Shown here piece by piece: positions 3,486 through 39,783 of a DNA stretch of 58,896 nt; the stretch's first letter is position 1, and each line of letters starts with the position of its first letter. The translations under genes and the position numbers were made by a program. This DNA is from an uncultured Candidatus Bathyarchaeia archaeon (GTDB taxonomy: Archaea > Thermoproteota > Bathyarchaeia > Bathyarchaeales > Bathyarchaeaceae), in the NCBI GenBank assembly GCA_964618655.1, contig CAZUFG010000001.1, forward strand, positions 1 through 58,896. The letters are read 5' to 3'. The notes under the pieces are model-generated. The model was given only the letters and a program-made list of their open reading frames with translations, was not told the DNA's origin and ran no database searches.

Positions 3486-4988
3486 CTATGGTTTTGCTAC
3501 TGATACTCTGCAATGAGTGAGACTTCTTCGTCTCTTAGTCCAAGCCATTTTTGAGAAAGCTACGCAAATCAAGGTTGCGGCTAAGAATAGCACTAGAACA
3601 ATAATTTCTGGCATTTCTGGGACTACCCATGTACCGATAATGTAGACTGTTGGGGTGCTGAAGTTTAAACTCAAAGACAAGATTACGTGTGTAGCGTTCT
3701 CCTCAACTATCGGAGTTGTCGTTTGTCCGCAAATAATGACAAACCATTGCCCCGGTGAAGCGTAGAGTAGGTTCCTTGGAATGGTTATGTTGACAAAGCC
3801 ACTGCCTTCGCCTGTAACGTTGAACATTAGCAACCTGTTGGGTTGAACGAGTATCATCGGAACCGGAGTAATCGATCCGTTACTTACCGTTGTAACATAG
3901 AATGTTTGGTTCTCCCAAACGATCTCATGGACGAGCGTTTCGATGAGGAATTCGTAGTAGCCGCTCTCTACATAGTGTAGAAGCAAGTTAGTGTCAGGGT
4001 CAGCAAGTATCGTGTCAAACAGTTCTAGAGTACAGACGCTTGGCGGTCCTTTAGTAGCATTGAAGGTTATTGTGGCTAGTGTTCCGTTTCCCTCAGGGAA
4101 TGTTGTCCAATTGCCTTCACCCGAACCTTGAGGAATCAATAGGATGCCGAGCAAAATGTAGTCCTCATCGATGATCGGCCCAAAATAGAAGACTTCGCCG
4201 AACTGTTCCATGAAAGTGCCATTTAACACTTCCACAACCTCTAGGAAGTTTGTGTCGTAGCGTAACTTGAACTCTAAGCCGACAAGCTTCATACTAGTGA
4301 CTACGTCGTAAATGGTAATGTTGATGTTGAAGACTTCGCCTGAGCGTGTTGGCGCATATGTTTCAGGTTCCACTTTCATTAGTGCCGGAGGTAATGGAGG
4401 TACAATATATGAGTAGCTGCCATCTTCCACACTTGTCGGAAGCGGACCCGCCTCTGGATCGCCAACTATAACATCATATAGGTCAAGGAGACAAGACGCG
4501 GGAGCCTCCTGCACAATTTTCAGGGTTATTCTTGCCAAGGTTCCATTACCAGATTTGGGAACATACCCTTTTTCTATGGCTCTGGTTATGTTGTAGTATG
4601 TAACAGCGTACTCTGCATAGCCGCCATATATCGACTTTGCGAGGACCCAGAGGTTTCCGGCGTCGCTGTCAGGCGTCATGAAATGGCCTGTTGGAAGGTC
4701 AATGCTTATACCTTCTAGAATGGTGCTGTTCCAACTAAGTTTGAATTCCACACCTCCAACGTTTGCTGCGTCTCTGATTTTCACGTCAACGGTAAATGTG
4801 TCATCTACTGCTGTTGTGTTAGAATAGAATATGCTTTCAGGAGGATCAACATAAACTGTTTGTTCTTGGGCACGCACTGGAAAGATGATTACTCCACTTG
4901 CGACACTTAATAGTAATAAAGCAGTTAAGAAAAGCCACAGCAGTTTTCCCACTTTATTATTTGAAGATATGTTTTTCATTTTTATCAC
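3486..4988 (-). CDS. Membrane-anchored scaffoldin-like protein: signal sequence, two cohesin-like modules (class A then class B), a beta-rich module and a C-terminal PEF-CTERM-like anchor
   Basis: 500-aa ORF. Class A cohesin: VDVKIRDAANVGGVEFKLSWNSTILEGISIDLPTGHFMTPDSDAGNLWVL...KSGNGTLARITLKIV. Class B cohesin: KLVGLEFKLRYDTNFLEVVEVLNGTFMEQ...GNGTLATITFNA. The C-terminus is VVPEMPEIIVLVLFLAATLICVAF followed by KMAWTKRRR. There is no dockerin. Confidence 0.7.
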   Translation of the reverse strand: MIKMKNISSNNKVGKLLWLFLTALLLLSVASGVIIFPVRAQEQTVYVDPPESIFYSNTTAVDDTFTVDVKIRDAANVGGVEFKLSWNSTILEGISIDLPTGHFMTPDSDAGNLWVLAKSIYGGYAEYAVTYYNITRAIEKGYVPKSGNGTLARITLKIVQEAPASCLLDLYDVIVGDPEAGPLPTSVEDGSYSYIVPPLPPALMKVEPETYAPTRSGEVFNINITIYDVVTSMKLVGLEFKLRYDTNFLEVVEVLNGTFMEQFGEVFYFGPIIDEDYILLGILLIPQGSGEGNWTTFPEGNGTLATITFNATKGPPSVCTLELFDTILADPDTNLLLHYVESGYYEFLIETLVHEIVWENQTFYVTTVSNGSITPVPMILVQPNRLLMFNVTGEGSGFVNITIPRNLLYASPGQWFVIICGQTTTPIVEENATHVILSLSLNFSTPTVYIIGTWVVPEMPEIIVLVLFLAATLICVAFSKMAWTKRRRSLTHCRVSVAKP

Positions 4989-5010
4989 GTTGGCTTAGTT
5001 ACGACAATTA

Positions 5011-5030
5011 CATATAAGAAATTTTCTCTA
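5011..5030 (-). promoter_or_regulatory. Variant island promoter: box TAGAGAAAATTTCTT (5016-5030) overlapping the TATA box (CTTATATG, 5011-5018)
   Basis: It has the same TAGA(A/G) half-site, but here the distal half of the box is replaced by the TATA box itself. It lies 23-30 nt upstream of ATG 4988. Confidence 0.35.
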
Positions 5031-5135
5031 ATAGAATTCGGATTCTGGGTAATCTTTTTTAAAAAACACTTTTGAAATGAAAGTGAGGAAAGAGGAAGGG
5101 GTTAAGATTTGTTGAATTTGCCTTCTTTTCAGAGT

Positions 5136-5786
5136 TTAACGTTTAGTGTTTCTTGGCAAAGTCTTCTTTGTTATGATGATAGCGACGAGTGTTGCAATCA
5201 TAAATACTGGCAATAGTAAGATTGCCGGAAACTCTGGTAATACTGTGACTTCACCATCAATTGCAACGTTGGGAAGAGGTTCTCCATCAATGTCGCCAAT
5301 TATGACATCATAAAGGTGTAGAGTTGTCTTACCCCATGTCTTGCTGACAAACGTGATTGTTGCTAAGATTCCATTACCAGATTTAGGCGCATAGCCTAAT
5401 TCAACAGCTCTGGTCGTGTTCATGAATGTGACACCATACGATGCGGTCCCTGCGTCATTGTCTACATTCAGCCAGAGAACCCAGAGGTTCCCGGTATCGC
5501 CGTCAGGCGTCATGAAATGGCCTGTTGGAAGCACCATCTCTGTAGCATTAAGAATTGTAGAGTTCCATCCGAGTACAAATTGTACGCCCTCAACACTGGC
5601 AGCGTATGCAATAGTTACATTCACTTTAAAGGTTGTGCCAATTTCTGCTTCTGGCACTACCTTTGAGGCTGGGTCTACTGTCACCGTCATTTGTTGCGCT
5701 CTCACAAGATTAATAGTGACGCTGACTACAAATAGAATGGCCAACATCATTAATAATGCTGTTTTTCCTTTCTTCAAATCATTCAC
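5136..5786 (-). CDS. Membrane-anchored single-cohesin protein with a PEF-CTERM-like sorting signal
   Basis: 216-aa ORF. Signal sequence: TALLMMLAILFVVSVTINLVRAQ. Class A cohesin: FKVNVTIAYAASVEGVQFVLGWNSTILNATEMVLPTGHFMTPDGDTGNLWVL...KSGNGILATITFV. The C-terminus is VLPEF-PAILLLPVFMIATLVAIIIT-KKTLPRNTKR, that is a PEF motif, a TM helix and a basic tail. Confidence 0.7.
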   Translation of the reverse strand: MNDLKKGKTALLMMLAILFVVSVTINLVRAQQMTVTVDPASKVVPEAEIGTTFKVNVTIAYAASVEGVQFVLGWNSTILNATEMVLPTGHFMTPDGDTGNLWVLWLNVDNDAGTASYGVTFMNTTRAVELGYAPKSGNGILATITFVSKTWGKTTLHLYDVIIGDIDGEPLPNVAIDGEVTVLPEFPAILLLPVFMIATLVAIIITKKTLPRNTKR

Positions 5787-5829
5787 CTAACATTGTATAG
5801 AGTTGACTACATTTTCTGATGGTATAGGT

Positions 5830-5844
5830 TTTTAAACTTTTCTA
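5830..5844 (-). promoter_or_regulatory. Variant island promoter: half-box TAGAA followed by TATA (TAGAAAAGTTTAAAA)
   Basis: It has the same layout as the 5011-5030 variant. It lies about 45-58 nt upstream of start 5786. Confidence 0.3.
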
Positions 5845-5952: not shown

Positions 5953-7860
5953 TCAGCATGATTTTCCAAATCTGCCTGCGAGTATGATCATGTCTAGAAT
6001 GTTCACGGTGCCGTCCCTATTCAGGTCAGCCCATGGATTCCATCTTGGATGCCCTTCAGATGTGCCGAATGCGTCCGCGGCTATGATACAGTCCAGTATA
6101 TTAACCTTCCCGTCGCCGTTTATGTCGCCCAAGATTCTAATTTTCACTTGGCCGTCAGTGAAGATATTATCTGTCAAGTCGGTCTCGTACGGAACTTGAT
6201 CGGCTTCTGCACTTATATTGTAGTAGTGGCATGGCTGCACGCCCTTGGTAATCCATGTTATAGTAACGTTTGTCTCGTTGCCTGGAGCCAAATCATTGAC
6301 AGTAACTTCTCCAATTGCATTTCCGTCATATTTGGCAGTGACGTTGAATGTTTCTGATAGGTTTCCTTCGTTTCTGACCGTTATGGTGATGTTAACTGGC
6401 CATCCCTCGTATGTCATGTTTTGAGCTGGAACCACATTGACTACAGCCACGTCTCTTATGAGTGTCATGAAGAAGCCATCTCCCACTTCGTGAGGCATCG
6501 GATTTCCAGACGAGTCGGTAAGGCTAGTACTGTTCAAGTCCAGAACTGTCCATCCAATGGAGTCAACTTGGAATAGAATATTGACTAATGGCAATGGAGT
6601 AAATGTTGTGATTGGACTTGCTGGAGGATCTAACGTAACGTTAACCCACACGTAACCAACCTTGTCGTCAACAATGAATTTGCCACTTGGACGAATTCCA
6701 CTTAGGTCTGGGCAGATGATGGCACCCCAGCAGGTTAGGACACGCGTATCATAAGTTAGGTTAAATATGTAGTTGTATAGGCTATCAACGTCATCGACCA
6801 TTATTGTAATGTTGAAAGTTGCAGGCGGCAACATTGTTGGATCGATGATTTCTGGCGGTTCCACGTAGAGTTTCGCCATCATAATGTTGTTAAAGGAGCC
6901 GTTAGAAGTTGTGTGGGGAAGAGGCTCATCCAATTGATCGGTAAGTTCGGTTTCAGAGAGAGTTAGGGCGCTTGCTCCTAAGCCTTCAACATGGAATGTT
7001 ACAATCGCTAAAGTTCCGTTACCGCTTATAGGCGGTTCTGGTGAAGATAGAGAGGCTGAGAACGTTAAGTAGCCAGCTGTATTGTTTATTTCCTTGAGCG
7101 GCGTGACTGTGGGCGGGAAGAAGTCTCCTAATACGACGTCTGTGGCGTTTAATATGCTGGGATCAAAGCTTAGTTTAAATTGGAAACTGTAAACGTCAGT
7201 TGCATTGGCGATTGTTATGTTAACATCAAAGTTGTTGCACGGAACCAGAGCGGGGTCGAAAATTTTTGGTGGATTCACATAGATTTTAGCGGTTGGTGGC
7301 GGTGGTGAATTCTTAAAGTATCCATCGATGGCGTCGTGAGGTAACGGATTAGCCTCGATGTCTCCAATTATGCTATCTGTTAAGTCTATGATGCTGGAGC
7401 CTATGTCCTTCACTTTTAACGTGATCTTTGCTAGGGTTCCGTTGCCAGATTTGGGCGCATACCCCTTTTCTATGGCCCTCGTCAGGTTCTTGTATGTAAC
7501 AGCGTACTCTGCATAGCCGCCATATATCGACAGTGCGAGGACCCAGAGGTTTCCGGTGTCGCTGTCAGGCGTCATGAAATGGCCTGTTGGAAGCTCAATG
7601 CTTACACCTTCCAAAATGGCGCTGTCCCACTGAACCTTGAATTGTGGACCTCCAACGTTTGCTGCGTCTCTGATTTTCACGTCGACGGTAAAGTTTTGTT
7701 CCGGAAGCAGAGTTGGATCAACTATGCTTGGCGGGTCTATATAGATTTTCATTGCAGCCGGATCAGCGGAAACCGTGTTTAGTGGGAACTGAATCATGCT
7801 GAGTAGGAATAGAATCAAAACTACAGATAACATACTCTCGATTTTTTTCGTCATTGCCAC
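5953..7860 (-). CDS. Adaptor scaffoldin-like protein: signal peptide, three cohesin-like modules, a CARDB-like module and a class C dockerin
   Basis: 635-aa ORF. Cohesin 1 is class A (AANVGGPQFKVQWDSAILEGVSIELPTGHFMTPDSDTGNLWVL). After a PPPP linker come cohesin 2 (ATDVYSFQFKLSFDPSILNATDVVLGDFF...GNGTLAIVTFHV) and cohesin 3 (VDSLYNYIFNLTYDTRVLTC). The CARDB-like segment is RDVAVVNVVP...VNITITVRNEGNLSETFNVTAKYDG...TDLTDN. Confidence 0.75.
   Translation of the reverse strand: MAMTKKIESMLSVVLILFLLSMIQFPLNTVSADPAAMKIYIDPPSIVDPTLLPEQNFTVDVKIRDAANVGGPQFKVQWDSAILEGVSIELPTGHFMTPDSDTGNLWVLALSIYGGYAEYAVTYKNLTRAIEKGYAPKSGNGTLAKITLKVKDIGSSIIDLTDSIIGDIEANPLPHDAIDGYFKNSPPPPTAKIYVNPPKIFDPALVPCNNFDVNITIANATDVYSFQFKLSFDPSILNATDVVLGDFFPPTVTPLKEINNTAGYLTFSASLSSPEPPISGNGTLAIVTFHVEGLGASALTLSETELTDQLDEPLPHTTSNGSFNNIMMAKLYVEPPEIIDPTMLPPATFNITIMVDDVDSLYNYIFNLTYDTRVLTCWGAIICPDLSGIRPSGKFIVDDKVGYVWVNVTLDPPASPITTFTPLPLVNILFQVDSIGWTVLDLNSTSLTDSSGNPMPHEVGDGFFMTLIRDVAVVNVVPAQNMTYEGWPVNITITVRNEGNLSETFNVTAKYDGNAIGEVTVNDLAPGNETNVTITWITKGVQPCHYYNISAEADQVPYETDLTDNIFTDGQVKIRILGDINGDGKVNILDCIIAADAFGTSEGHPRWNPWADLNRDGTVNILDMIILAGRFGKSC
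5956..6135 (-). other. Dockerin module, class C
   Basis: ILGDINGDGKVNILDCIIAADAFGTSEGHPRWNPWADLNRDGTVNILDMIILAGRFGKSC. It has a duplicated DxNxDGxxNxxD calcium loop plus helix. Confidence 0.9.
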
Positions 7861-7975: not shown

Positions 7976-8722
7976 CTAAGTTTCGCTTTTTCCGAAGTTT
8001 TCAGCAAGTTTTATGGCGTCAAGAATGTTGACGACACTATCCTTATTGAGGTCTGCTCTGGAGTCCCAGTTCGGATCGCCTGGCTTTGAACCGAAGGCTT
8101 TCGCTAATATGATGGCATCAAGAATATTTACGGTGCCGTCTCCATTGATGTCGCCTAGCAGTGGTGGTGAATTCTTAAAGTATCCATCGATGGCGTCGTG
8201 AGGTAACGGATTACCCCCGGGGTCTCCAATTATGCTATCTATTAAGTCTATGATGTTGGAGCCTGTGCCCTTCACTTTTAACGTGATCTTTGCTAAGGTT
8301 CCGTTGCCAGATTTTGGTGCGTAGCCCTTTTCTATTGCTTTGGTCATGTTGTAGTATGTAACGGCGTAGTTTGCATAGCTGGCGTATATCGCCTTCGTGA
8401 TTATCCAGAGGTTTCCGGCGTCGCTGTCAGGAGTCATGAAATGGCCTGTTGGAAGCTCAATGCTTACACCTTCCAAAATGGCGTTGTTCCAACTAAGCCT
8501 GAATTCCACACCTCCAACGTTAGCTGCATCTCTGATTTTCACGTCGATGGTAAAGTTTTTTTCCGGAAGCAGAGTTGGATCAATTATGCTTGGCGGGTCT
8601 ATGTAGATTTTCATTGCAGCCGGATCAGCGGAAACCATGTTGGGTAGGAACGGGATCATGCTGACTAGCAATAAAATCAAAACTACATAGGACATGCTCA
8701 TGATTTTTTTCGTCATTGCCAC
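7976..8722 (-). CDS. Minimal cohesin-dockerin protein: signal peptide, class A cohesin and class A dockerin
   Basis: 248-aa ORF. Its N-terminal 190 aa are near-identical to those of the 5953-7860 product (MAMTKKI.SM...DPAAMKIYIDPPSI.DPTLLPE.NFT.DVKIRDAANVGG...). The dockerin follows directly after NSPPLL. Confidence 0.8.
   Translation of the reverse strand: MAMTKKIMSMSYVVLILLLVSMIPFLPNMVSADPAAMKIYIDPPSIIDPTLLPEKNFTIDVKIRDAANVGGVEFRLSWNNAILEGVSIELPTGHFMTPDSDAGNLWIITKAIYASYANYAVTYYNMTKAIEKGYAPKSGNGTLAKITLKVKGTGSNIIDLIDSIIGDPGGNPLPHDAIDGYFKNSPPLLGDINGDGTVNILDAIILAKAFGSKPGDPNWDSRADLNKDSVVNILDAIKLAENFGKSET
7979..8161 (-). other. Dockerin module, class A
   Basis: LLGDINGDGTVNILDAIILAKAFGSKPGDPNWDSRADLNKDSVVNILDAIKLAENFGKSET. 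Confidence 0.9.
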
Positions 8723-8838: not shown

Positions 8839-9687
8839 CTAAGTTTCTCTTTTTCCGAAGTTTGCAGCAAGTTTTATGGCGTCAAGAATGTTGACGGCGT
8901 TATCTTTGTTGAGGTCTGCTCTCGGGTCCCAGTTTGGAGATCCCTGCTTTGAACCGAAGGCTTTCGCTAATATGATGGCATCAAGAATATTTACGGTGCC
9001 GTCTCCATTGATGTCGCCTAGCACTGGTGTAGTCGTTGAGACTCTTATGGTATAGGTTTTGTTGCTCTGCAGTCCGAGGCTGTCGGTGACGGTTAGGGTC
9101 ACGGTGTAGTTTGCTTCTGTAGTGTAAACATGTAGTATGGTTGCATTACTTACAGTTGTGATGTTGCCGTCGCCGAAATCCCACTTATAACTTACAATTG
9201 GAAGAATGTGCGTCCCGTTCCAGCCGGGTGATGACCTAGAAGCATTAAAGATAACGGTTTCATTTGGATAGGGTCTGGATGGGTACCATACGAAGTCAGC
9301 TGTGGGTCCCGTGGGCGGTATGACATCTATTGGTTTAGATTTGGTGCACCATAACCCTTCACTGTCTGTTATGTTTAGGGTAACGGTGTATGTTCCCGTT
9401 TTTGTGTAGATGTGAGTTGCTATGGGTTGCGTTTCGTTGATTTTGGCCGTGTCGTCGCCGAAGTCCCATTCGTAACTAATGATAGTCCCTCCGTCAGGTG
9501 TTGAGGATGAAGCGTTAAAGGTTACTGTTGTGTTGACGTAGGGCTGGAGTGGCGAATAGGTGAAGGAGGCTTGTGGTGTGGATTCAGCATAAACTAGGAC
9601 TTTATCATTGAGAAGTCTTGTTGCAGTTGCTGTGCATCCAAATACGAATAATGCTGTAAGAATAATGCATCTCATTTTCATTTGCAT
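8839..9687 (-). CDS. Secreted protein with two PKD domains and a class A dockerin
   Basis: 282-aa ORF. Signal peptide: MRCIILTALFVFGCTATA. PKD signatures: FNASSSTPDGGTIISYEWDFGDD...YTVTLNITDSEG and FNASRSSPG...VSYKWDFGDGN...YTVTLTVTDSLG. Confidence 0.8.
   Translation of the reverse strand: MQMKMRCIILTALFVFGCTATATRLLNDKVLVYAESTPQASFTYSPLQPYVNTTVTFNASSSTPDGGTIISYEWDFGDDTAKINETQPIATHIYTKTGTYTVTLNITDSEGLWCTKSKPIDVIPPTGPTADFVWYPSRPYPNETVIFNASRSSPGWNGTHILPIVSYKWDFGDGNITTVSNATILHVYTTEANYTVTLTVTDSLGLQSNKTYTIRVSTTTPVLGDINGDGTVNILDAIILAKAFGSKQGSPNWDPRADLNKDNAVNILDAIKLAANFGKRET
8842..9024 (-). other. Dockerin module, class A
   Basis: VLGDINGDGTVNILDAIILAKAFGSKQGSPNWDPRADLNKDNAVNILDAIKLAANFGKRET. Confidence 0.9.
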
Positions 9688-19108: not shown

Positions 19109-19127
19109 TCTCTACGCACTAATCTAT

Positions 19128-20644: not shown

Positions 20645-20658
20645 GGAGAGAAGTTTTC

Positions 20659-24534: not shown

Positions 24535-25185
24535 ATGAAGAAGTGGGTATTTGCCTTCGGACTGATTCTCATACTTGTAGGGATTATTATGGTGTCCCGC
24601 TATAACATAAACAACAAGAGAATCGTTCCAACTCAGGTTAAAGTTAAAGGTGTTAACGATCAACCAAGCGTCTCGAGCGAGTTTATAGCGGGAGATACAA
24701 TATTTCTGGAGATCAGAGTAGGCCGTGATTGGCCGTTCGGGTATTTTGAAGATCCCGGCATTTTATACGTATTTATTGACTTCGTTGACCCAAGGGGTAA
24801 CGTAACAAAATTCGATATGGAATACGGGCTGACTGAGACAGAGGGGAATATATATGAGTGGTTTCTTAATGTCACGCAAAACGAAGGTGGTTTGCTCGTG
24901 CCAACTCCATTTCTTGAAGAGAGAGTGATAGGTGGAGTTGTTCTATTTAACGGCACATACACCGCAACCGTAAAGGTAGAGGATATTTGGCCCCCAAGAG
25001 AAGACCCGCCAAGTTCTCTCACACTTTATAAAACTGAAATAAAAATAATAACGGAGTATCCTTACATTGCTCTTCTTCCCATAGGAGTTAGTCTAATAGT
25101 GGTCGGAGGAGCTGTATCACTGTTTGGGCTGAAGAGCGGAAAGAGTAAAAAGCTAGTTAAGAAAAGGGTTCATGTGTTATCTTAG
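24535..25185 (+). CDS. Bitopic membrane protein with an extracytoplasmic beta-rich domain
   Basis: 216-aa ORF. N-terminal TM: WVFAFGLILILVGIIMV. C-terminal TM plus basic tail: IALLPIGVSLIVVGGAVSLFGL then KSGKSKKLVKKR. A TATA-like GGTTTATAGG lies about 30 nt upstream. Confidence 0.5.
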   Translation: MKKWVFAFGLILILVGIIMVSRYNINNKRIVPTQVKVKGVNDQPSVSSEFIAGDTIFLEIRVGRDWPFGYFEDPGILYVFIDFVDPRGNVTKFDMEYGLTETEGNIYEWFLNVTQNEGGLLVPTPFLEERVIGGVVLFNGTYTATVKVEDIWPPREDPPSSLTLYKTEIKIITEYPYIALLPIGVSLIVVGGAVSLFGLKSGKSKKLVKKRVHVLS

Positions 25186-31944: not shown

Positions 31945-34569
31945 TTAAGGATCTGGCCTTACTTCTCCGAAGTGATTGGCTATCAGTATACAATCGAGGA
32001 TGTTTACGACTTTATCGTGGTTTATGTCTGCCAGTGGGTTCCAGCGTGGATGACTTGGGCGGGTTCCAAAAGCGCCAGCTAAAATAATACAATCTAGTAT
32101 GTTGGTTCTTCCATCGAAGTTCAAATCGCCCATTGAGGTTGGTACTATGTCGTAATATCCATGTTCCACGTCGTGTGAGATTGTGTTTGATTCGGTGTCG
32201 CCGAGTATGGTGTCAAACAATGTCAGGTTGCATGAGAGTATTGGATTTTCTAAGCCCATGAGTTGATATTTAACCCTGAATGTTATCGTTGCTAGGGTCC
32301 CGTTCCCGCTTGGGAATGTTGTCCAGTTGCCTATTCCTGTGCCTTGAGGAATTAGCAGGATTCCTAGTTGAACGTAGTCTTCTTCTATGATTGGGCCATA
32401 ATAGAGGGTTTCGCCGGCTTGTTCCATGAAGGTGCCGTTGGATACTTCAACGATCTCCAGAAGGGTTGTGTTATAGCGGAGCTTAAACTCTACACCAACA
32501 AGTTTCCATGCCCAACTTAGACCATTGATGGTTATGTTGATGTCGAAGGTTTCGCCTAGTTGCTTGGCGTGGTAGGTTGGAGGCTCCACTTTTAGTAGTG
32601 GGCTGGGTAGCGGCTTTGGATAATCCAGCCATGGGTCATACAGAACATAATCGCTGACATCGTCGCCTAAACCGTAATGCGGGCCATAGGGTTGTCCCAT
32701 GTAAAGCCAGCTTGTCTCATGATACGGTCCAGTTGCGTCGCCCCACCAATTGTAGCGGGCGTCAAAGGTTACATTGTTGCCAGCGTAGTCGGGGTCTTGG
32801 ATAACGCCGTATTCTCTGTTGTTGTAGATGTTGTTGTAGTTGGCGTATGAGTACGAGTTTGCGACTACTTCAATTCCGTAGTAGTTGTTATAAATGTCGT
32901 TGCAGCTCATAACAACCGTAGAAGATGGCAGATCATAGAAAGCTACCCATCCGTCAATTACTATGCCAGCAGAAGACCAAGATGGTGATGGATGCGTATT
33001 GTCGCAGTTGTATATGTCATTTCCAAGAATTTCAACATCGCATGGTTCGTTCCAAGGCTCTATTTCAATTCCATAGTTAACGTAGTCTTGATCGCTGTAG
33101 ACTTGACCTTCTATAATACAGCTGTATACTCCACCGCTACAACCGTCATAGAAGAACACTCCTATTCGCCCAAAGTTTTTGACTGTGCATTTCCCTGACG
33201 CTTACATCTGAGCCATCCCAAATTCCAATAGCGCTACCAACCATGTCGCCAATGGTATTTGGAGATATTATGCAACCTCTGATTGTTCCTATCGACTCTT
33301 CGTATATAACTCCATAATTTTTACCGGGGCCTAATCCCTGTCCTTCGATATCCAAGTGCCACAAGGTTACGACAGCATTCTCGACAAAAATCACTGCTTC
33401 TCTGGTTCCATAGTTAGTGGTGAATGAACCGCTCCCTTGGACTATAGGAAGGCTTGCGCCAATTATGGATATATTCTTGTTTATGTATAATGCTTCGTTG
33501 TATGTGCCTTCATGCACCATTACTGTGTCGCCTGGGCTTGCTTCGTCTATAGCCTCTTGAATAGTTCCAGTTGGGTTTACATGATAAGTTCTTGGAGTAG
33601 TTTCAAAGGTTGCGCCGAGCCATGGACTGTAATCAACATAGTCGCTGATGGCGTCTCCTGTGCCGCCTGGATTAGATGAATGCGTTGGACCGCTTGCGTC
33701 ACCCCACCAGTTAAAGCGAGCATCGAATATCTGACTTGAATCCCAGTTTCTGACACCTTCAGTGTTGCCATAGAGATTGTTGTAGTGTGCCGTGTTTCCA
33801 GGTCCGGGTTCATCTCCAGACCCAGTGTAGTATGGGGAGCCAGGCCCCAAGAGGTGGATTCCGTAGTAGTTGTCGTGGATTTGGTTGTATTCGATAACAT
33901 TGTAGGCGCATTCTGCTGCCCATTCTAGTTCTATGCCCTGAGAGCAGTCGTAAACTTCGTTACCGCGGACAGTGCTATAGCTGCTCGGACCTATACCAAT
34001 GTCATTGTCGTATACCTCGTTGTACTCAATTATGACCCCGTCTTTTGCTGCATACCCCATTATGCCGCAACTCAACCATGTTGTTCCCGAATATTTATTG
34101 TTGGAGACTGTGTTGTAGCTAACAGTGCCTCCAGTCTCGAAAGCGAGGACTATGCCGTTTGGAACCTGATCCGGCCCGATTGTACCTGGGCCGACGATGG
34201 TATTGTCGTGTATGTCAACGGTCAGCTGAGCTCCTCGCGCTGTGATGCCGTTCTTGTTATAATAGCTGATGCGAGAATTCTCAACCTCTACCGAAACTGA
34301 GGTGCTGACGGCGTCCAGCCACATCCCATAGGTGCGAGTGGCAATTGGTACGCTGTTCATGTTAACGACCGTCACATCGTCTATGGTGCCAGCGGTCTCG
34401 CCATATGAGATGCCTACAACATAGTTTGCTCCTCCAGGGAGCCCATCTACGTTAACTCCATCCACTTTAAGATCTTCCACTGTGACACCCGCGGTTCCCA
34501 CGTTCTCGACGCTTATGATGCTTGCGAGCTCTTGGCCATTCCAGAAAGCTCCTGCCTGAGTCCCAAGAG
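31945..34569 (-). pseudogene. 3' fragment of a split parallel beta-helix (NosD/CASH-like) - cohesin (class B) - dockerin (class C) gene, also carrying a 1-nt frameshift
   Basis: Track ORFs 33146-34501 and 31945-33159 are consecutive pieces of one protein. The frame of the upstream piece stays open beyond the assigned GTG up to 34609, with no ATG, signal peptide or promoter. Beta-helix rungs and two (A/D)R(F/Y)NWWGDA(S/T)GP motifs are present. Cohesin: WKLVGVEFKLRYNTTLLEIVEVSNGTFMEQ...GNGTLATITFRV. The frames switch at the T3C3 run 33190-33195. Deleting one nt there gives ...GIWDGSDVSVRECTVKNFGRIGVFFYDG.... Confidence 0.7.
31948..32130 (-). other. Dockerin module, class C
   Basis: GDLNFDGRTNILDCIILAGAFGTRPSHPRWNPLADINHDKVVNILDCILIANHFGEVRPDP. 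Confidence 0.9.
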
Positions 34570-34575
34570 TATAAA

Positions 34576-34838
34576 ATGAGAAAGCAGCTCTTGCCGAGCG
34601 GCGCGTTGCTTATTGATAATCGAGTCGCTTGGGCGAGAACCTACCTTGGCAAGGCTGGGCTTATTGAAGGCACCAAGAGAGGTTTCTTCTCTTCACTGCT
34701 CAGGTTGAACGCATCTGAAACGTGCTCGATGGTCTCGCGCAAGGAATGCTCTTTTTCATCCCCAAGAAACCTCAGGAAAGGAAGCATCATATGCTCGTGG
34801 CTGGGAACGGTCATAGTTGAAAATATGTCACAGTGCAC
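34576..34838. pseudogene. Two convergent remnants of an Mrr-type restriction endonuclease N-terminal (Mrr_N winged-helix) domain. The catalytic domain is absent.
   Basis: Minus strand 34814 down to about 34694 encodes MTVPSHEHMMLPFLRFLGDEKEHSLRETIEHVSDAFNLSSEE (compare E. coli Mrr MTVPTYDKFIEPVLRYLA...). Plus strand 34576 to 34689 encodes MRKQLLPSGALLIDNRVAWARTYLGKAGLIEGTKRGFF (compare E. coli ..SGQLVYKNRAGWAHDRLKRAGL...). These are the first and second halves of one domain, encoded on opposite strands and meeting at about 34690. Confidence 0.65.
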
Positions 34839-34950
34839 TTAAATGACTTTACAGTTTTCTGGCATTCGAACAATGTATAGAGACGCTCCGTTGCCACTTA
34901 TTGGAAGTCTAGGTCTTCTTCTGCTGTCCATGTTTCTTCACAGTCCGTGC

Positions 34951-35070
34951 ACAAGCCTACAGCATCCACAAAACACAAGTCACAAACCAATCCAGCCACA
35001 CTCCACACACTCACACAACCGATCAACAACTCTACCACAAACAGCACACTCACCCATCAGCAAACACCTA
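34951..35070. repeat. Strand-asymmetric low-complexity tract, C/A-rich on the plus strand and G/T-rich on the minus strand
   Basis: By my count these 120 nt contain 7 G and 12 T (101 A+C). An example stretch is cacaaaccaatccagccacactccacacactcacacaacc. It lies 3' of the 35143-35664 gene, after an oligo-T run (35096-35107 on the plus strand as a-runs). Confidence 0.7.
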
Positions 35071-35142
35071 AGACTAGGCTCTCCTCAGCGTGCCTAAAAT
35101 AAAAAAACATGATGTTGATGTGTATCGCTCGCGCAATGGCAA

Positions 35143-35664
35143 CTAAGCACCTTGTGGAGACGCTATGTATCCCACGAAATCTGCAAATATGCCGTTTGTC
35201 CCTGGATCAGCGTCCCTATACCAGTCCGTTCCCGTCATTTCAAGCTTCAACAGCAAACCCTCATAAGCAGCCGTACCATGGCCTTCAAGTTTACCCTGGA
35301 ATTGGATGTAGTTTGTGTCCTTCACCGTGAACATTCCTTCAAACGTGCCCTCAGCCCCAGAGATCGTGAACGAGCCAAAACCAACTCCTTCCCCGGTTTT
35401 CAAGCTGAAAACAGCATATAACACGATCTCTAACACTCCGGTCAAACGTGGATCCGAGCTTGCGATAGGCCCTGATGCTTCCGCACCCACTTGGCGCACC
35501 ATTCCACTCTTGAGAACATATATGTCACCTGGCCAAGTTGCAGTCATACTCATAGTTCCCGTGACCTCAGTTCGTACTGCAGGTGCAACTACAATTCCAG
35601 GCGCTGTGATCGATAGCGCTAGCAAAGCTACGATAACCATCAAAACTCTCCTCAAATCTCTCAC
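35143..35664 (-). CDS. Small secreted protein of unknown function
   Basis: 173-aa ORF. Signal peptide: MRDLRRVLMVIVALLALSITAPG. It has an island-type promoter upstream. The GTG start is overlapped by the SD-like GGGGAGGTG. Confidence 0.55.
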   Translation of the reverse strand: MRDLRRVLMVIVALLALSITAPGIVVAPAVRTEVTGTMSMTATWPGDIYVLKSGMVRQVGAEASGPIASSDPRLTGVLEIVLYAVFSLKTGEGVGFGSFTISGAEGTFEGMFTVKDTNYIQFQGKLEGHGTAAYEGLLLKLEMTGTDWYRDADPGTNGIFADFVGYIASPQGA

Positions 35665-35722
35665 CTCCCCTCTCTACTTCTCATAAACAGATAGAACCCG
35701 TGCAAAACCATGCTCTTTTTGC

Positions 35723-35750
35723 TTTAAAACACTTGTGAAACTATCTTCTA
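35723..35750 (-). promoter_or_regulatory. Island promoter: TATA-like GTTTTAAA (35723-35730) plus box TAGAAGATAGTTTCA (35736-35750)
   Basis: The gap is 5 nt. The TATA box lies about 59 nt upstream of start 35664. Confidence 0.5.
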
Positions 35751-35948
35751 GTGGCACGCACTAATACCCGGATAATTTGTGTGTTTGCGTGTGTAGCGCG
35801 CCCAAGATTACACTTTAATTGGGCTTTGACAACCTCAAAGTTCAACAAATCAAGAAGTAGGACCCGCGCGCTGCCTCTTGCCGATCACGGATGTGGCCTA
35901 AAAAAGAGGGGAGTTATGGAGATGTTGCCACTAAAACTTGGTCACTCA

Positions 35949-36878
35949 TCAGACTGCAGGGTTGAATATGTGCGGTGGAACACCATCATATGCGCGATTC
36001 TCGCCAAGATTTCTGGAGATGACGTTGTAGTTTACCAATTCTGGGGGATAGCAGAAAACGAAATCATAACTGCTTCTTCTGAGATCGTTGAAACCAATCA
36101 TGTTGCCTAACATATACGTCTGCGGAGGTAGCGTTTGATTCCATGCAGCCATTGCTATGGCGAATGTCCACCCAATCCAACCTGTCATCACAATTCTGTT
36201 GTGAACAACTTTGTTACCCGTCACCTGCCCTCCCCACGATGACAGGGCGATGCCAGCATTGATGTCGATGCTGACAGGGAAGTCCGCGGTTATTTTGTTG
36301 AAGGCAACAAGATTATCATTGGCTGGAAGATTGAGTATCCAAGATGAGACGATCCAGATTCCTAATCCTCCAGTAGTAAGATTCGTCAGTCCATTTATGT
36401 CATTATATCTTATGACCCATCTGTTGCCACACACGCATGTAACTCCCTGGAAAGGCGCATTCATAATGTTGTGCTCAACAGTCACTTCGTCAACAACTCT
36501 ACCAAAGACTGGCAGGTCCACAAAAAACGTAAATCCGCTTATGGTTGCCCCACTCGAGGTCCATGCCTCAAGAAAGAACCCTATGTTGATTGTGGAATCC
36601 AAACCGTAGGGCGGCCCATCCACGATGACTGCTCCGCCTTCTCCCATGATTTCGACAGACTTGTTCACTATTGCCCCGTAATATTCGCCAGGTCCAACAA
36701 TGATTTTGTCTCCTGGCAGTGCGGAGTTAATAGCCTCTTGAATGGTTGGATAATTATCTGGAACTTTGATTATCTTTGGTTCGGCACCTACTGACACTGT
36801 AGCTATGGTTACGGTCAGCAGAAACACGGTCATTATTGTTGCCAATGCACGTGATGCATTTCTTGTTTCTATTCTCAT
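35949..36878 (-). CDS. Secreted parallel beta-helix (NosD/CASH-like) protein
   Basis: Track ORF 35949-36902 starts at TTG. I prefer ATG 36878 (MRIETRNASRALATIMTVFLLTVTIATVSVGA), which has GAGGA 8 nt upstream. The N-cap motif YPTIQEAINSALPGDKIIVGPGEYYGAIVNKSVEIMG is typical of the family. Confidence 0.7.
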   Translation of the reverse strand: MRIETRNASRALATIMTVFLLTVTIATVSVGAEPKIIKVPDNYPTIQEAINSALPGDKIIVGPGEYYGAIVNKSVEIMGEGGAVIVDGPPYGLDSTINIGFFLEAWTSSGATISGFTFFVDLPVFGRVVDEVTVEHNIMNAPFQGVTCVCGNRWVIRYNDINGLTNLTTGGLGIWIVSSWILNLPANDNLVAFNKITADFPVSIDINAGIALSSWGGQVTGNKVVHNRIVMTGWIGWTFAIAMAAWNQTLPPQTYMLGNMIGFNDLRRSSYDFVFCYPPELVNYNVISRNLGENRAYDGVPPHIFNPAV

Positions 36879-36924
36879 TTTTAAATCCTCTTGAACATTC
36901 AAACAACTATTACGTATGCAGTAG

Positions 36925-36951
36925 TTATATGCCTACTGAAACTATTTTCTA
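36925..36951 (-). promoter_or_regulatory. Island promoter: TATA (ATATAA, 36925-36930) plus box TAGAAAATAGTTTCA (36937-36951)
   Basis: The gap is 6 nt. The TATA box lies 47 nt upstream of ATG 36878. Confidence 0.55.
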
Positions 36952-37008
36952 TAATCTTCCTCCACATCTAAAAGCGCGCGCTAGCTCACGTTACTGAAAG
37001 CGCACACT

Positions 37009-37413
37009 TCACTTCTTTCTGAGCTCGTTGTTTCTGCATGTGTAGCAGCGTAGGCCCTGAATCCAAGCTTGAGAAAGGCGACAGTAAACTTTGCCGTCGC
37101 TTGTAGCTCCGGCTAGGTGAAGCCAACACAACACCCGCATCGGACTAGCAGCAGCAGAATCCAAGTACGTAGCAATCTTCAACTGCGGATTACCCTCACC
37201 ATGACGCCGATTATACTCCTTCACAGCATTCATCAACACTTTACTAAAGCCTCTAGAACCAGCTTCACGCCTAGCGATTTCCCTAAACTGCACAAAATCC
37301 GCCACATCACAAGGCTCAACAGAAAAACTGGAAACAAAAGCCTTCGTCAAACTGGATGCTGATGCGAAAACGCTATGAAGCAAATGGAACAACAAGCGCC
37401 ATACTACAAACAA
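37009..37413 (-). CDS. Small hypothetical protein, possibly ribbon-helix-helix-like at the N-terminus with a Cys-rich C-terminus. The start is uncertain.
   Basis: The 134-aa track ORF has a TTG start and no internal ATG near the N-terminus. SSFSVE-DVADFVQFREIARRE-GFSKVLMNAVKEYNRRH fits a strand-helix-helix pattern. The C-terminus has four Cys (VLCW...VYCRLSQAWIQGLRCYTCRNN). A shorter TTG start (..TKAFVSSFSV) is plausible. Confidence 0.4.
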   Translation of the reverse strand: MFVVWRLLFHLLHSVFASASSLTKAFVSSFSVEPCDVADFVQFREIARREAGSRGFSKVLMNAVKEYNRRHGEGNPQLKIATYLDSAAASPMRVLCWLHLAGATSDGKVYCRLSQAWIQGLRCYTCRNNELRKK

Positions 37414-37541
37414 ACACTTTCAGAGAACATCCATACGAAATAAGCACTATTTTGATAGACCTTCCAGACGCTTCCATAAACATTCTTGTCAAAGGTAACA
37501 ACAAAATAGCTCAATGGCTCTGGAAGCTCATAACAGATGAC

Positions 37542-38321
37542 TTAAAGAGAGGTCAATTTGTCGGTTCCAGAAGGCTGGATGATGGTGGTGTTGCCGGTGC
37601 CTTGGAGCGTTAGGCTCGTATTGATGACTACCTGTTCGTCATAAGTTCCCTCGTAGGCGTATATTGTTTGTCCTGGGGTTGCAGCGTTTACGGCTGCTTG
37701 AATTGTGTCGAAGAAGCTGGCTGGGTCAAGTTCTGCCGTGTTCCAAATGGTTAAGTCAATCTTTACTGGCCAATCACCAACAGAGATTATGACATCGCCT
37801 GGAGTATAGCTTTGGCTAAGATCCCAATCTTCAAAGACGATTACTTCAATATCTGTTGGTCCAATGCCAGCAGGGCGGTTAACGATTGTCTTGATATAGG
37901 TAGTGCTTGAGAAGCCAGGTAGTAAGTAATAGTTGGGAGCACCAACAATCAACTCCAATTGATAGCCTGGATAAAGCGTCGGACACACGACAGGTCCAGC
38001 CGGCCACCAAGTAATGCCATCAAGTGACCACAGAAACGTTAAGTCTGCAGGAATAATTCCCGGACCGACATTTTCTCTGTAGAAAACTCCGGTAAGCCAT
38101 GGTGCTGGTGGGCTTCCACCAACGTTCGTTACAGTTCCCTTTACTGTGACTTTTGAGCCTGCAGTAGCGCCTAGTGTCGCATAAATTTGATTTGCAGCGT
38201 CGTTTACTATTAGGCTTGGCCCAGTTACGCTAGCTTCAACAGGTTTTACGTTTAGTATGAGTGGCATCGTGCTTAAGAGAAGCATTAGAAGCATTGATAT
38301 CGATACTAACTGCTTTTTCAT
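37542..38321 (-). pseudogene. 5' fragment of the split beta-helix/cohesin/dockerin gene: signal peptide, ~190-aa beta-rich domain and the first beta-helix cap, then a premature stop at the insertion boundary
   Basis: 259-aa ORF. Signal peptide: MKKQLVSISMLLMLLLSTMPLILNVKPVEA. It ends ...FFDTIQAAVNAATPGQTIYAYEGTYDEQVVINTSLTLQGTGNTTIIQPSGTDKLTSL*, that is directly after the N-cap motif that opens multi-rung beta-helices in its paralogues. Confidence 0.6.
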
Positions 38322-38396: not shown

Positions 38397-38839
38397 TAAC
38401 CAATTGTTCTAATTTTTTTTATCATTTAATACATAAAACGTGGTCAATGACGTTGCCTAATGGATTGTATCTTATCATTCGATAAATAAAATGAAGTCAT
38501 TTACAAAAAATGTTCCAAAAACTCGCACATAGAATTACATTATTAGTAAAATGACAAAGCTTTATAAATGGAAATCATACACACAGTTAAGCGGGGAAAG
38601 AGGTAGCCATAAAACCAATTGCGCCTGCGCAATAACAGTAAAACCCTTTCTCTTCTCTCCCTTCTCTTTCCCCCACCCTTCATAATCTATGGAAAAGAAT
38701 GTTCTTGTTTTTGGCGAAAATTCCAGCTGTTAAGGTTTTGAATAAACTTTTTCATACCTGTTTAATTATGTCTACTGATTGAAATTTGGCGTGGTAAGTT
38801 TTCATTAAGCTTAATCTAATACTTTGCTGTTAGTTTCAA

Positions 38840-38854
38840 AGAAACTATTTTCTG
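38840..38854. promoter_or_regulatory. Orphan copy of the island palindromic box (minus strand CAGAAAATAGTTTCT), about 50 nt upstream of the TATA box of the wHTH-TM-cohesin gene
   Basis: Its centre matches the 36937-36951 box (AGAAAATAGTTTC). No TATA box sits at the usual offset on the minus strand. This position would suit autoregulation of the divergent plus-strand gene. Confidence 0.35.
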
Positions 38855-38903
38855 AAAGGGCATTTTACACGATTTTTCTCCAACAGTTTTTTTTACACCA
38901 ACG

Positions 38904-38911
38904 TTTATAAA
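38904..38911 (+). promoter_or_regulatory. TATA box (TTTATAAA) of the wHTH-TM-cohesin gene
   Basis: It lies 36-43 nt upstream of ATG 38947. The SD-like GGGGAG lies at 38935-38940. Confidence 0.55.
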
Positions 38912-38946
38912 CACGCGAATTCCCAGCTTTATCAGGGGAGAACTGA

Positions 38947-39783
38947 ATGCCTCAAGTAAGATGTCCACATTGTGGAACAACTATGAATTTGGAGAATCGC
39001 AGAGAAACGGATTTCAGCCTTATTCTAGGGGCGTTACATAGCAGAGAGAGAAGTTTTTCGGAACTGCTTAGAATAACTGGATTGCCTAGAAAAACTCTTT
39101 ACCTCAGACTAAAGGAACTATGCAAGACAGATGCCATTATCAAAAATAAACTATACTACTTGAATGAGGCAAACCCCCATAAAGAATGGGAGAAAAAAAT
39201 AATGCCCGGAAATTCAAGACTACTTAATAACAAAAAAGCAATAGTGCTACTCTTACTCCTATGCATAGGTCTACCAGTAACTACAAACGTTATTGCCACG
39301 TTCTTCCAAAGTCCACCTCCGACGCCCTCTGAACCAGAACCTTTAGGCTACCTCACCGCAATTGTAACAGCAAATAATGTTTCAAATGTTTATGGCTGGC
39401 AAGTGGGTTTACGTTTCAACTCCACAAACCTCAAAGTTATAGACGTTAGACCTGGAGGCTTCCTTACAGAAACAGAACAAAACACCGACGTTGCTCAAAA
39501 TGAGACGTCAGGTTATGAAATTACAAAGAAGACTCTATTCTGCTATAACACGATCGACAGCGACATATTACTTATTGGTCAGACTTTGTTGGGAGAGGAC
39601 ACTTCTGAGACAAATCATAGTGGTCCTTTGGTGATCATAAAATTTGGATACTACTATGCGTATCAAGAACCTGAGCTCATCTTGAATGAAAACCTTGGAT
39701 ATTACAATACAATGCTTCTAAGAGCGGATTGCTCAGAAATCCCACTAAATGAAAACACAATAACCATACGTTGCTTGCCTTAA
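38947..39783 (+). CDS. Membrane-tethered putative transcription regulator: CPHC knuckle, winged HTH (cytoplasmic), a single TM helix, a Pro-rich linker and an extracellular cohesin-like domain
   Basis: 278-aa ORF. N-terminus: MPQVRCPHCG. The wHTH-like segment is RSFSELLRITGLPRKTLYLRLKELCKTDAIIKNKLYYL (about 39004-39172). A basic stretch NNKK precedes the TM helix AIVLLLLLCIGLPVTTNVIATFF (39238-39306). The linker is QSPPPTPSEPEP. The cohesin-like domain reads LGYLTAIVTANNVSNVYGWQVGLRFNSTNLKVIDVRPGGFL...GPLVIIKFGY (39343-39780) and has the same core pattern as the island cohesins. Confidence 0.65.
   Translation: MPQVRCPHCGTTMNLENRRETDFSLILGALHSRERSFSELLRITGLPRKTLYLRLKELCKTDAIIKNKLYYLNEANPHKEWEKKIMPGNSRLLNNKKAIVLLLLLCIGLPVTTNVIATFFQSPPPTPSEPEPLGYLTAIVTANNVSNVYGWQVGLRFNSTNLKVIDVRPGGFLTETEQNTDVAQNETSGYEITKKTLFCYNTIDSDILLIGQTLLGEDTSETNHSGPLVIIKFGYYYAYQEPELILNENLGYYNTMLLRADCSEIPLNENTITIRCLP

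Follow-up and report, generated by a model that had tools for sequence, protein, structure and literature searches.

Cohesin and dockerin modules of the island

We analyzed a window of 58,896 nt from an uncultured Candidatus Bathyarchaeia archaeon (assembly GCA_964618655.1, contig CAZUFG010000001.1, positions 1-58,896), in which genes for cohesin- and dockerin-bearing proteins lie on both sides of an Opp-family ATP-binding cassette (ABC) importer and in which the substrate-binding protein encoded beside this importer itself ends in a dockerin. The inventory is based on a listing of open reading frames (ORFs) and on Pfam scans of the window's ORFs with curated cut-offs, and the limits of the cohesins were set with a hidden Markov model (HMM) trained on modules of the window itself and applied to all six reading frames. 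Genes are named below by their first coordinate; loci used for comparison, taken from Bathyarchaeia genomes or metagenome contigs, carry labels from L002 to L102.

Twelve cohesins were identified in 8 genes, the number given in the original prediction, 11 of them clear by sequence and the twelfth confirmed by a structure model. PF00963 scored above the Pfam gathering threshold in 5 ORFs (3486-4988, 5953-7860, 7976-8722, 11235-13124, and 31945-33159). The window-derived HMM found 11 strong cohesins with E-values of 1e-37 to 1e-65, with 3 in gene 5953, 2 each in 3486 and 11235, and 1 each in 5136, 7976, 25359, and 31945. The cohesins of 5136, 25359, and 38947 fell below the Pfam cut-off or were missed, and the window-derived HMM recovered them with E-values of 1e-56, 3e-45, and 1e-6, respectively. 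Sequence support is weak for the last of these, in 38947-39783 (Pfam 19.1 bits vs a cut-off of 24.1). We count it as a cohesin because PF00963 is precomputed in 10 of 26 homologues of the protein and because solved cohesins make up all 29 top Foldseek matches in the PDB to the AlphaFold model of 38947-39783 (alignment of 23 sequences, pLDDT 78.8), with 3ghp_A as the best match (E 5e-6; TM-score on the target 0.5-0.6). The beta-sandwich cohesin fold was checked by a model for this weakest module only. Among the cohesins of the window, three classes (A, B, and C) and the divergent pair of 11235 can be told apart.

The type I dockerin profile PF00404 scored above its cut-off (22.9 bits) in exactly 7 ORFs (5953, 7976, 8839, 9793, 13354, 25359, and 31945), again as predicted, and a dockerin HMM run over every frame of the window found no eighth copy. 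All 7 are canonical dockerins that keep both calcium loops (D-x-N-x-D...D), with D, N, D, and D invariant in each loop, and every dockerin protein of the window has a signal peptide, the beta-helix protein (31945) excepted. The 7 modules fall into 3 groups, comprising 7976, 8839, and 9793, then 5953, 25359, and 31945, and finally 13354, the binding protein, alone. That this collection of modules arose by chance, by faulty annotation, or through a chimeric assembly is effectively refuted. Such an artefact would be in keeping with the 3 of 12 cohesins that Pfam missed or under-scored and with a phmmer search of the window's cohesins against solved cohesins, which gave no match, but 5 cohesin genes and all 7 dockerins exceed curated cut-offs, the modules are paralogous with E-values down to 1e-65, and the weakest cohesin is confirmed by its model. 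Moreover, the same island, with an identical S8 subtilase, was assembled independently in JGI and ENA samples, and synteny was found in other species.

Scaffoldin tiers are present in the form of a 3-cohesin adaptor, a 2-cohesin anchor, and a 1-cohesin anchor, all encoded on the minus strand. In the adaptor scaffoldin (5953-7860), which has orthologues of 640-660 amino acids (aa) in many loci, a signal peptide precedes 3 cohesins (A, C1, and C2), and these are followed by a CARDB domain and a dockerin (5956-6147); a small adaptor (7976-8722) has a signal peptide, 1 class A cohesin, and 1 dockerin. The larger anchor (3486-4988) carries a signal peptide, cohesin A (4413-4859), cohesin B (3954-4382), a VPEMP motif, a transmembrane (TM) helix, and an RRRR tail, and the smaller one (5136-5786) carries a signal peptide, cohesin A (5250-5690), an LPEF motif, a TM helix, and a basic tail resembling PEF-CTERM. 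These are the two C-terminally membrane-anchored cohesin proteins that had been predicted. A further secreted protein (11235-13124) has two divergent cohesins, A' and B', and a C-terminal stretch of about 230 aa to which no domain could be assigned; it has neither a dockerin nor a TM helix.

The anchor tails of the window (5169-5260 and 3549-3650, minus strand) belong to a broader pattern, in which 18 cohesin-only proteins across the loci end in [VI]xPE[FLIM] followed by a TM helix and a cluster of K/R residues. In the window's anchors a PE[FM] motif precedes the TM helix and the basic tail, and neither S-layer homology (SLH) domains nor a sortase (LPXTG) signal are present. NCBIfam models found nothing when run on whole anchor proteins, and the PEF-CTERM-type matches came from isolated C-terminal tails only; the C-terminus of the L009 anchor (L009:17235-17918) matched TIGR03024 PEF-CTERM with 26.5 bits vs a cut-off of 23. 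Archaeosortase-type processing of the anchors is, from these tails, a reasonable lead and not a finding.

Binding protein, importer, and conserved gene order

The OppBCDF importer, predicted to lie in the middle of the island, was recovered by Pfam at 16353-21642 on the plus strand. It comprises OppB (16353-17438), OppC (17435-19108), which aligns to solved DppC/OppC structures with an E-value of 1e-42, OppD (19679-20644), and OppF (20545-21642), that is, 2 BPD_transp_1 permeases (OppC_N on 1 of them) and 2 ATPases with an oligo_HPY C-terminal domain. A conserved small gene (19128-19541) lies on the opposite, minus strand and sits beside the Opp genes in 8 loci, and a Yip1/DUF6114-like polytopic membrane protein (22472-23656, plus strand) accompanies them in 9 loci; membrane proteins at 21624-22418 and 24535-25185 (plus strand) are less conserved. 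The OppC protein is 557 aa long vs about 300 aa in solved homologues. The extra length of about 250 aa forms an extracytoplasmic insert (residues ~57-312) that follows the first TM helix and precedes the permease core, and long OppC genes recur in related loci. Neither Pfam nor the PDB gave a match to the insert, on which the scaffold or the binding protein might dock.

Next to the importer, an Opp/Dpp/Nik-family (cluster C) substrate-binding protein of 960 aa (13354-16236, minus strand; SBP_bac_5) carries a signal peptide and a C-terminal dockerin (13357-13548). In its AlphaFold2 model (pLDDT 83.6, pTM 0.82), an alpha/beta body (aa 25-660) is followed by a beta-sandwich spacer of about 220 aa (683-900) and a two-helix dockerin with helices at 914-922 and 947-955. 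By hydrophobicity the protein has no TM segment, and no lipobox was found. Since an archaeal binding protein has to be held at the surface and no other anchor was seen, the dockerin is its sole visible tether. Pfam assigned no domain to the spacer, nor to the OppC insert, to the C-terminal part of the 2-cohesin protein, or to the approximately 220-aa repeat of the S8 protease described below.

The binding protein matches the SBP_bac_5 family and the cluster C fold, with its domain order permuted instead of canonical. A single-sequence PDB search with the N-terminal half found nothing, and it was a profile search that revealed the permutation, with profile positions 454-635 corresponding to solved-chain residues 28-186, positions 125-225 to residues 253-350, and positions 327-377 to residues 444-494. 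The N-terminal half hence resembles the C-terminal half of canonical cluster C proteins, and conversely. Judged from these alignments, the whole Bathyarchaeia family of approximately 850-aa binding proteins appears to be circularly permuted relative to canonical OppA-type proteins. All named database homologues are from Candidatus Bathyarchaeota/Bathyarchaeia. PF00404 is precomputed in at least 24 of 120 database homologues, a count that misses weak dockerins such as that of P0001, which is 99% identical to the window's binding protein. Fusions with Peptidase_C14 or Peptidase_M14 exist among homologous binding proteins. A dockerin-bearing paralogue with 64% identity was also observed in another genome of the same sample (L002:8044-14814), away from Opp genes, flanked by a glutamate dehydrogenase gene on one side and a 588-aa NosD/pectinesterase-like beta-helix gene on the other.

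The synteny search in related genomes that the original prediction had proposed showed that the gene order recurs in Bathyarchaeia genomes and in metagenome contigs. In a scan of one genome per GTDB species, a single binding-protein sequence used as the query found no relative, and an alignment-based profile was required; it yielded 16 loci, all from Bathyarchaeia metagenome-assembled genomes (MAGs). A search of databases with a profile of the 7 dockerins returned only contig-end fragments of at most 107 aa, and the census was therefore redone with Pfam and with a dockerin profile on metagenome contigs, which gave 80 loci with 136 dockerin-bearing ORFs. The recovered loci were scanned for gene content with window-derived HMMs.

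A dockerin ends 13 of the 14 complete binding proteins of the family in the genome loci, and the binding-protein gene directly follows OppB-C-D-F in 9 loci. Where sequence is available, it is usually followed by a secreted 2-cohesin protein of 620-670 aa (the 11235 orthologue), then by a small dockerin protein (9793 orthologue), the 3-cohesin/CARDB/dockerin adaptor (5953 orthologue), a single-cohesin anchor of approximately 210-230 aa, and a two-cohesin anchor of approximately 490-500 aa. The full order was identified in L009 and L015 and part of it in L016, with variants in L013 and L014, and at least 8 metagenome loci share it (L052, L053, L063, L070, L078, L089, L090, and L101). Orthologues of the 2-cohesin protein were found in L009, L013, L014, L015, and L016 and in at least 8 metagenome loci. 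The locus represents a gene cluster that is conserved within the lineage and not an isolated case, and because the order of importer, dockerin-bearing binding protein, and cohesin scaffold recurs in genomes and metagenome contigs alike, the link between the Opp importer and the cohesin-dockerin genes is not accidental.

Clustering of 159 dockerins from all loci by carrier type placed those of the binding proteins in a cluster of 8, a cluster of 3, and a cluster of 3 with 1 other, apart from a large mixed cluster of cargo and adaptor dockerins, and grouped the S8 dockerins with those of the 3-cohesin adaptors. The separation of clusters by carrier suggests separate specificities; it fits several orthogonal cohesin-dockerin specificities, among which the binding protein would have a dedicated partner.

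These data also bear on the idea that the modules merely cross-link PKD, CARDB, beta-helix, and repeat proteins into a general surface coat or adhesion matrix, with the importer uncoupled from it. Many carriers have PKD, CARDB, Ig-like, or beta-propeller modules only, several proteins with both cohesin and dockerin could polymerise, and a giant repeat protein (1-3201) closes the cluster. For the dockerin/cohesin proteins of anaerobic methanotrophic archaea (ANME), adhesion has been suggested in two published accounts (PMC5244752; PMC9012536). We nevertheless regard such a matrix as quite improbable here, given that 13 of the 14 complete binding proteins carry a dockerin and have no other anchor, that their gene lies between importer and cohesin genes in a fixed order at many loci, and that their dockerins form sequence clusters of their own. 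As these 3 features are hard to explain otherwise, a functional coupling of scaffold and importer is favoured.

Cargo proteins and a candidate transmembrane regulator

To the left of the anchors, the minus-strand gene 1-3201 encodes a giant secreted protein (more than 1067 aa) in which a signal peptide is combined with a PKD domain (Pfam) and divergent InlB-B-like repeats; its C-terminus lies outside the window, and a dockerin is possible there. A homologue (E 6e-262) sits after the anchors in L009, and this gene is the leftmost member of the conserved cluster. The predicted content of the island was confirmed, but the island begins to the left of 3486, its predicted start. Two smaller cargo genes lie on the minus strand between scaffold genes. 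One (8839-9687) encodes a signal peptide, 2 PKD domains, and a dockerin, and the other (9793-11070) a signal peptide, a PKD domain, a weakly MG2-like beta-sandwich region, and a dockerin; the position of the latter between the 2-cohesin protein and the adaptor is conserved.

The largest dockerin protein is a secreted S8 subtilase of 2131 aa (25359-31754, minus strand), with a propeptide, a catalytic domain (30417-31142), a cohesin (25896-26318), and a dockerin (25365-25553). PF00082 scored 198 bits, D212, H246, N337, and S398 lie in canonical motifs, and the order of the D-H-S triad is intact. In the tail, 6 CARDB domains interleaved with repeats precede the cohesin, a further CARDB domain, and the dockerin; a repeat of approximately 220 aa (aa 904-1073, 1181-1400, and 1488-1706) alternates there 3 times with CARDB. 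The identical protein was found on 3 contigs, whereas look-ups of the exact sequences of the DNA ligase, the binding protein, and a shortened anchor gave no match. S8 giants with the same cohesin-before-dockerin tail were identified in L014, L092, L096, and L100, and a fifth, in L054, has a dockerin and is cut at the 3' end of the gene. In L014 the S8 gene directly follows the binding-protein gene, making this a second lineage with such a pairing. There (L014:12551-18187, plus strand; Bathyarchaeota MAG DGJ8_bin_44_34), an S8 domain of 783 aa and a 1095-aa tail with 3 CARDB domains, a PKD domain, a cohesin-like region, and a dockerin lie in frame with 1 stop codon between them, which could mark a pseudogene, a sequencing error, or a recoded stop. 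In L054 (L054:8280-12236, plus strand), a single polypeptide combines S8, a NosD-like beta-helix (aa ~547-1088), and a dockerin, which suggests that the beta-helix can serve as an accessory, perhaps binding, module of a protease.

The window's own beta-helix gene (31945-34609, minus strand) encodes a NosD-like beta-helix of 2 units, a class B cohesin, and a dockerin, and lacks a signal peptide. A frameshift near 33150-33200 splits it into 33146-34501, which matches PF05048 NosD with 50 bits vs a cut-off of 23.6, and 31945-33159. Nothing hints at a partnership with NosFY or N2O reductase, at which no search was aimed. The identical split is present in both other assemblies read (JGI 3300022551 and ENA ERZ781360) and is therefore a trait of the population, not a sequencing error in the window; the gene is probably a pseudogene. 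The predicted dockerin-bearing cargo accordingly stands for the S8 protease, the SBP_bac_5 protein, the PKD proteins, and the 3-cohesin adaptor, while the beta-helix protein listed with them is encoded by a broken gene. Beyond it follows a decayed or rearranged stretch (34610-38321, minus strand), where a fragment of an Mrr_N restriction enzyme (~34644-34838) lies alongside genes for a small secreted protein (35143-35664) and for a short beta-helix protein (35949-36902). A further gene of this stretch (37542-38321) is truncated; it encodes a signal peptide and an Ig-like domain, and its beta-helix is broken off by a stop after the first ~75 aa. The whole zone of gene decay (31945-38321) is in the same state in both other assemblies.

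Across the metagenome loci, the 136 dockerin carriers include 28 cohesin-plus-dockerin adaptors, 9 binding proteins of the window's family, and 4 S8 giants, and Pfam recognised 4 more distant SBP_bac_5 proteins among them. In a Pfam census of 64 other carriers, the domains were NosD (17), Beta_helix (15), CARDB (14), PKD (10), PQQ-type beta-propeller (5), MG2/Wzt_C (4), Zn_dep_PLPC (3), and Penicillin amidase, Peptidase_M14, and Kelch (1 each), with no glycoside hydrolase (GH), polysaccharide lyase (PL), or carbohydrate-binding module (CBM) family among the 25 most frequent. A second census covered 92 further ORFs in the surroundings of the genomic loci and had no GH, PL, carbohydrate esterase (CE), or peptidase family in its top 25. 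Polysaccharide enzymes, whose dominance among dockerin cargo had been named beforehand as evidence against the predicted assembly, thus dominate neither census. Within the window, Pfam detected no GH, PL, CE, or CBM in any island protein, domain-less stretches included, in line with the predicted archaeal, non-cellulosomal island without a recognisable GH or PL catalytic domain. A classical cellulosome was rejected, as Pfam found no GH cargo and no CBM on a scaffoldin.

At the right edge of the island, gene 38947-39783 (plus strand) encodes a candidate transmembrane regulator of 278 aa, with a CPxCG motif and a winged helix-turn-helix (aa 15-72), a TM helix (96-119), and, on the extracellular side, the weak cohesin described above (39346-39777). 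Full-length members of the family number 24 and span 244-306 aa; the organism names among them, where given, are only Bathyarchaeota. The N-terminus of the family, with the CPxCG motif and the winged helix, is strongly conserved. A classical zinc ribbon was considered and rejected, a single CxxC pair being conserved. In L008 a homologue (36% identity, E 3e-46) lies 0.8 kb downstream of a dockerin-bearing binding protein, and in L014 one lies between the S8 giant and the cohesin genes. In L102 a homologue adjoins, in divergent orientation, a 964-aa PKD/CARDB/dockerin gene, with NosD-like and S8 genes nearby. We infer that the protein may be a one-component transmembrane regulator that senses dockerin-bearing proteins through its cohesin. 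A literature search found no paper describing this combination of winged helix, TM helix, and cohesin.

In the right part of the window, outside the island, an ATP-dependent DNA ligase (39847-41607), a KaiC-type ATPase, and a Rad50 (zinc hook)/Mre11-like phosphoesterase/HerA-like (DUF87) cluster (52878-58871, minus strand) were observed. The Rad50-Mre11-HerA cluster is ordinary archaeal housekeeping context, and together with the ligase and the KaiC-type ATPase it forms an archaeal signature. Scans of the window for tRNA genes and Rfam families were empty.

Proposed function and relation to known systems

On balance we lean towards a cell-surface cohesin-dockerin scaffold whose core job is to hold the Opp-family importer's binding protein at the surface. 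The anchors, possibly processed by an archaeosortase, would hold adaptors through cohesin-dockerin bonds, and the adaptors and the 2-cohesin protein would in turn hold the binding protein and other dockerin-bearing proteins. The binding protein would thereby be kept near OppBC in a cell without a closed periplasm, and its long spacer would let it reach the permeases. Lineage-specific cargo would plug into the same scaffold, which in the window means the cohesin-bearing 2131-aa S8 protease, the 2 PKD proteins, and the broken NosD-like beta-helix protein. A tethered S8 protease would release peptides near the binding protein; peptides are the likeliest substrate, and this is the least secure step. 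The winged-helix/TM/cohesin protein may report the status of the scaffold or its cargo to transcription.

A number of observations weigh against this proposal. The reach of the spacer is an assumed geometry, and the 2-cohesin protein that typically comes next after the binding-protein gene has no visible anchor. The tail of anchor 5136 scored 7.3 for PEF-CTERM, 14.7 for PEFG-CTERM, and 16.2 for Loki-CTERM, each under its cut-off, the tail of 3486 had no match to an NCBIfam sorting signal, and neither NCBIfam nor Pfam recognised an archaeosortase gene in the window. An S8 gene accompanies the Opp cluster in 2 of roughly 12 loci that show the cluster, representing two lineages. The commonest identifiable domain in cargo, counted over the non-scaffold carriers, is the NosD-like beta-helix, and proteases are a minority; the NosD-like beta-helix also ranks first (9 ORFs) among the 92 neighbouring ORFs of the genomic loci. 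As for the binding protein, Foldseek supported the cluster C fold with the same E-values for nickel, chitin-oligosaccharide, mannoside, and peptide binders, and the best solved relatives by profile search were Thermotoga TM1223/TM1226 (1e-19; mannoside-bound structures) and Vibrio chitooligosaccharide binders (1e-17). The peptide binders scored slightly lower by profile, with AppA and Lmo0135 at 1e-16, Lactococcus OppA at 1e-14, and Thermococcus OppA at 3e-10. Since relatives that bind sugars, nickel, opines, or peptides all score alike, these searches do not discriminate between the substrates, and the OppA-type label, which the original prediction had taken as a sign of peptide binding, does not hold as proof of it.

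Several of these points would suit a system for harvesting glycans, in which beta-helix proteins of the CASH/PbH1 type bind or cleave polysaccharides, the importer takes up the oligosaccharides, and the protease is accessory. Both the sequence and the profile searches place the mannoside and chitooligosaccharide binders closest to the binding protein among solved structures, the descriptions of the Foldseek matches confirm these ligands, beta-helices are found in 17 of the 64 non-scaffold carriers, and the beta-helix profile gave weak matches to alginate epimerases, a polygalacturonase, and pectinesterases. Opp-class transporters import sugars in Thermotoga and in Archaea. Even so, we consider glycan harvesting unlikely. 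No GH, PL, or CE family was found in the window or in the top 25 of either census, and the beta-helix family profile, built with a trimmed seed as the full seed drifted into CARDB domains in the iterative search, matched the solved NosD structure 7o0y best (E 5e-26), with carbohydrate enzymes trailing by a wide margin (1e-12 or weaker). The margin between sugar- and peptide-binding relatives of the binding protein is small, the C14/M14 fusions and the S8 giants with scaffold modules point to peptides, and the beta-helix inside the S8 protease of L054 fits a binding role of that module.

Within the favoured scaffold model, the further claim that it couples proteolysis, peptide capture, and uptake is plausible, with the chances about evenly balanced. 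It relies on the association with S8 seen here and at L014, the S8 giants elsewhere, the C14/M14 fusions, and the literature on peptide fermenters, in which Bathyarchaeota are described as fermenting peptides and as having OppA transporters (PMC9534799). The surface assembly for extracellular proteolysis, peptide capture, and uptake that had been proposed from the window therefore survives in part, in that the link to the importer is conserved and S8 giants recur, whereas peptides as the substrate are a tentative step and proteases make up a minority of the cargo.

In a bolder and rather doubtful version of the scaffold model, cohesin-dockerin pairing would have been re-purposed twice, as the tether and platform of a permuted, otherwise anchorless binding protein and as a sensing device, with the cohesin of the winged-helix factor detecting the presence or occupancy of dockerin proteins such as the binding protein and the protease. 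If true, the latter would be the first cohesin to act as the sensor domain of a transcription regulator, adjusting expression of the island, and the former would be a cellulosome-like machine built for uptake and not for polysaccharide hydrolysis. The RsgI-type anti-sigma sensors of cellulosome producers are single-pass proteins in which an extracellular module from the toolkit of the complex is joined to a cytoplasmic part that controls transcription. The logic of the 38947 protein would be comparable, but the two are not homologous, and the 38947 protein has a DNA-binding winged helix of its own and, as its putative sensor, a cohesin and not a CBM.

Compared with the bacterial cellulosome (CipA, OlpB, and SdbA of Clostridium thermocellum), the island shares the hierarchy of anchor, adaptor, and cargo, a multi-cohesin scaffoldin, the C-terminal duplicated F-hand dockerin on secreted proteins, and several apparent dockerin and cohesin classes. 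It differs in having no GH cargo, no CBM on the scaffoldin, and no SLH or sortase anchoring, in counting a transporter's binding protein among the cargo, and in its archaeal host. The amylosome of Ruminococcus bromii (PMC4611034) and the mucinolysomes (PMC12997984) likewise re-use cohesin-dockerin pairing beyond cellulose with cargo matched to the substrate; unlike the island, these are bacterial glycan-degrading systems and are not known to tether ABC binding proteins, or proteases as main cargo. In Archaeoglobus fulgidus, work on which first made archaeal cohesin-dockerin modules known, according to the summary in PMC9012536 (Bayer 1999, Haimovitz 2008), archaeal pairs were shown to bind specifically and are non-cellulosomal with unknown role, but the modules there are few, with no multi-cohesin scaffoldin (PMC9012536, citing Peer 2009), and that summary describes no link to an importer.

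The closest known counterparts are the ANME proteins (Chadwick et al. 2022, PMC9012536; Timmers et al. 2017, PMC5244752). As many as 80 cohesin and 149 dockerin domains occur in ANME-1 genomes (PMC5244752), and the ANME account in PMC9012536, where it treats these modules, reports proteins with a dockerin and up to 5 cohesins and dockerins on OppA/NikA and TroA binding proteins, leaving their function open. Dockerin-tethered binding proteins in archaea are thus an already published idea, and the novelty claimed for archaea in the original prediction has to be narrowed, since dockerin-bearing OppA/NikA and multi-cohesin proteins are on record for ANME in that account (PMC9012536). As far as these two accounts describe them, the systems are alike in being archaeal and non-cellulolytic with function inferred in both, and in having scaffoldin-like proteins with a dockerin and several cohesins, dockerins on Opp/Nik-type binding proteins, and abundant CARDB and adhesion-type modules. 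They differ in that ANME belong to the Halobacterota and our host to the Bathyarchaeia, in that the genes here form one ordered cluster that includes the importer, and in the anchors, which are PEF-CTERM-like TM tails here and S-layer-domain proteins there. The permuted binding protein, the S8 protease with cohesin and dockerin, and the winged-helix/TM/cohesin protein go unmentioned in what the ANME account says of such proteins (PMC9012536). Our literature search found no paper linking Bathyarchaeia with cohesin or dockerin modules. The system is new in its lineage and, with no precedent found in the literature, in its fixed gene order relative to the importer, its permuted binding protein, its PEF-like anchors, its subtilase with cohesin and dockerin, and its cohesin-bearing candidate regulator.

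These results extend cohesin-dockerin biology past glycan degradation and past ANME. The small archaeal modules, in at least 3 sequence classes, are candidate orthogonal protein connectors, and a possible cohesin-based transmembrane regulator is indicated. Bathyarchaeia are among the most abundant archaea of anoxic sediments, where they are thought to use detrital protein and other polymers, and how extracellular degradation and the capture of its products begin in them is a stated open question (PMC9534799). The cluster offers a concrete model of how nutrients may be captured without a closed periplasm, in which the binding protein and, in some lineages, a giant subtilase would be held on an anchored scaffold.

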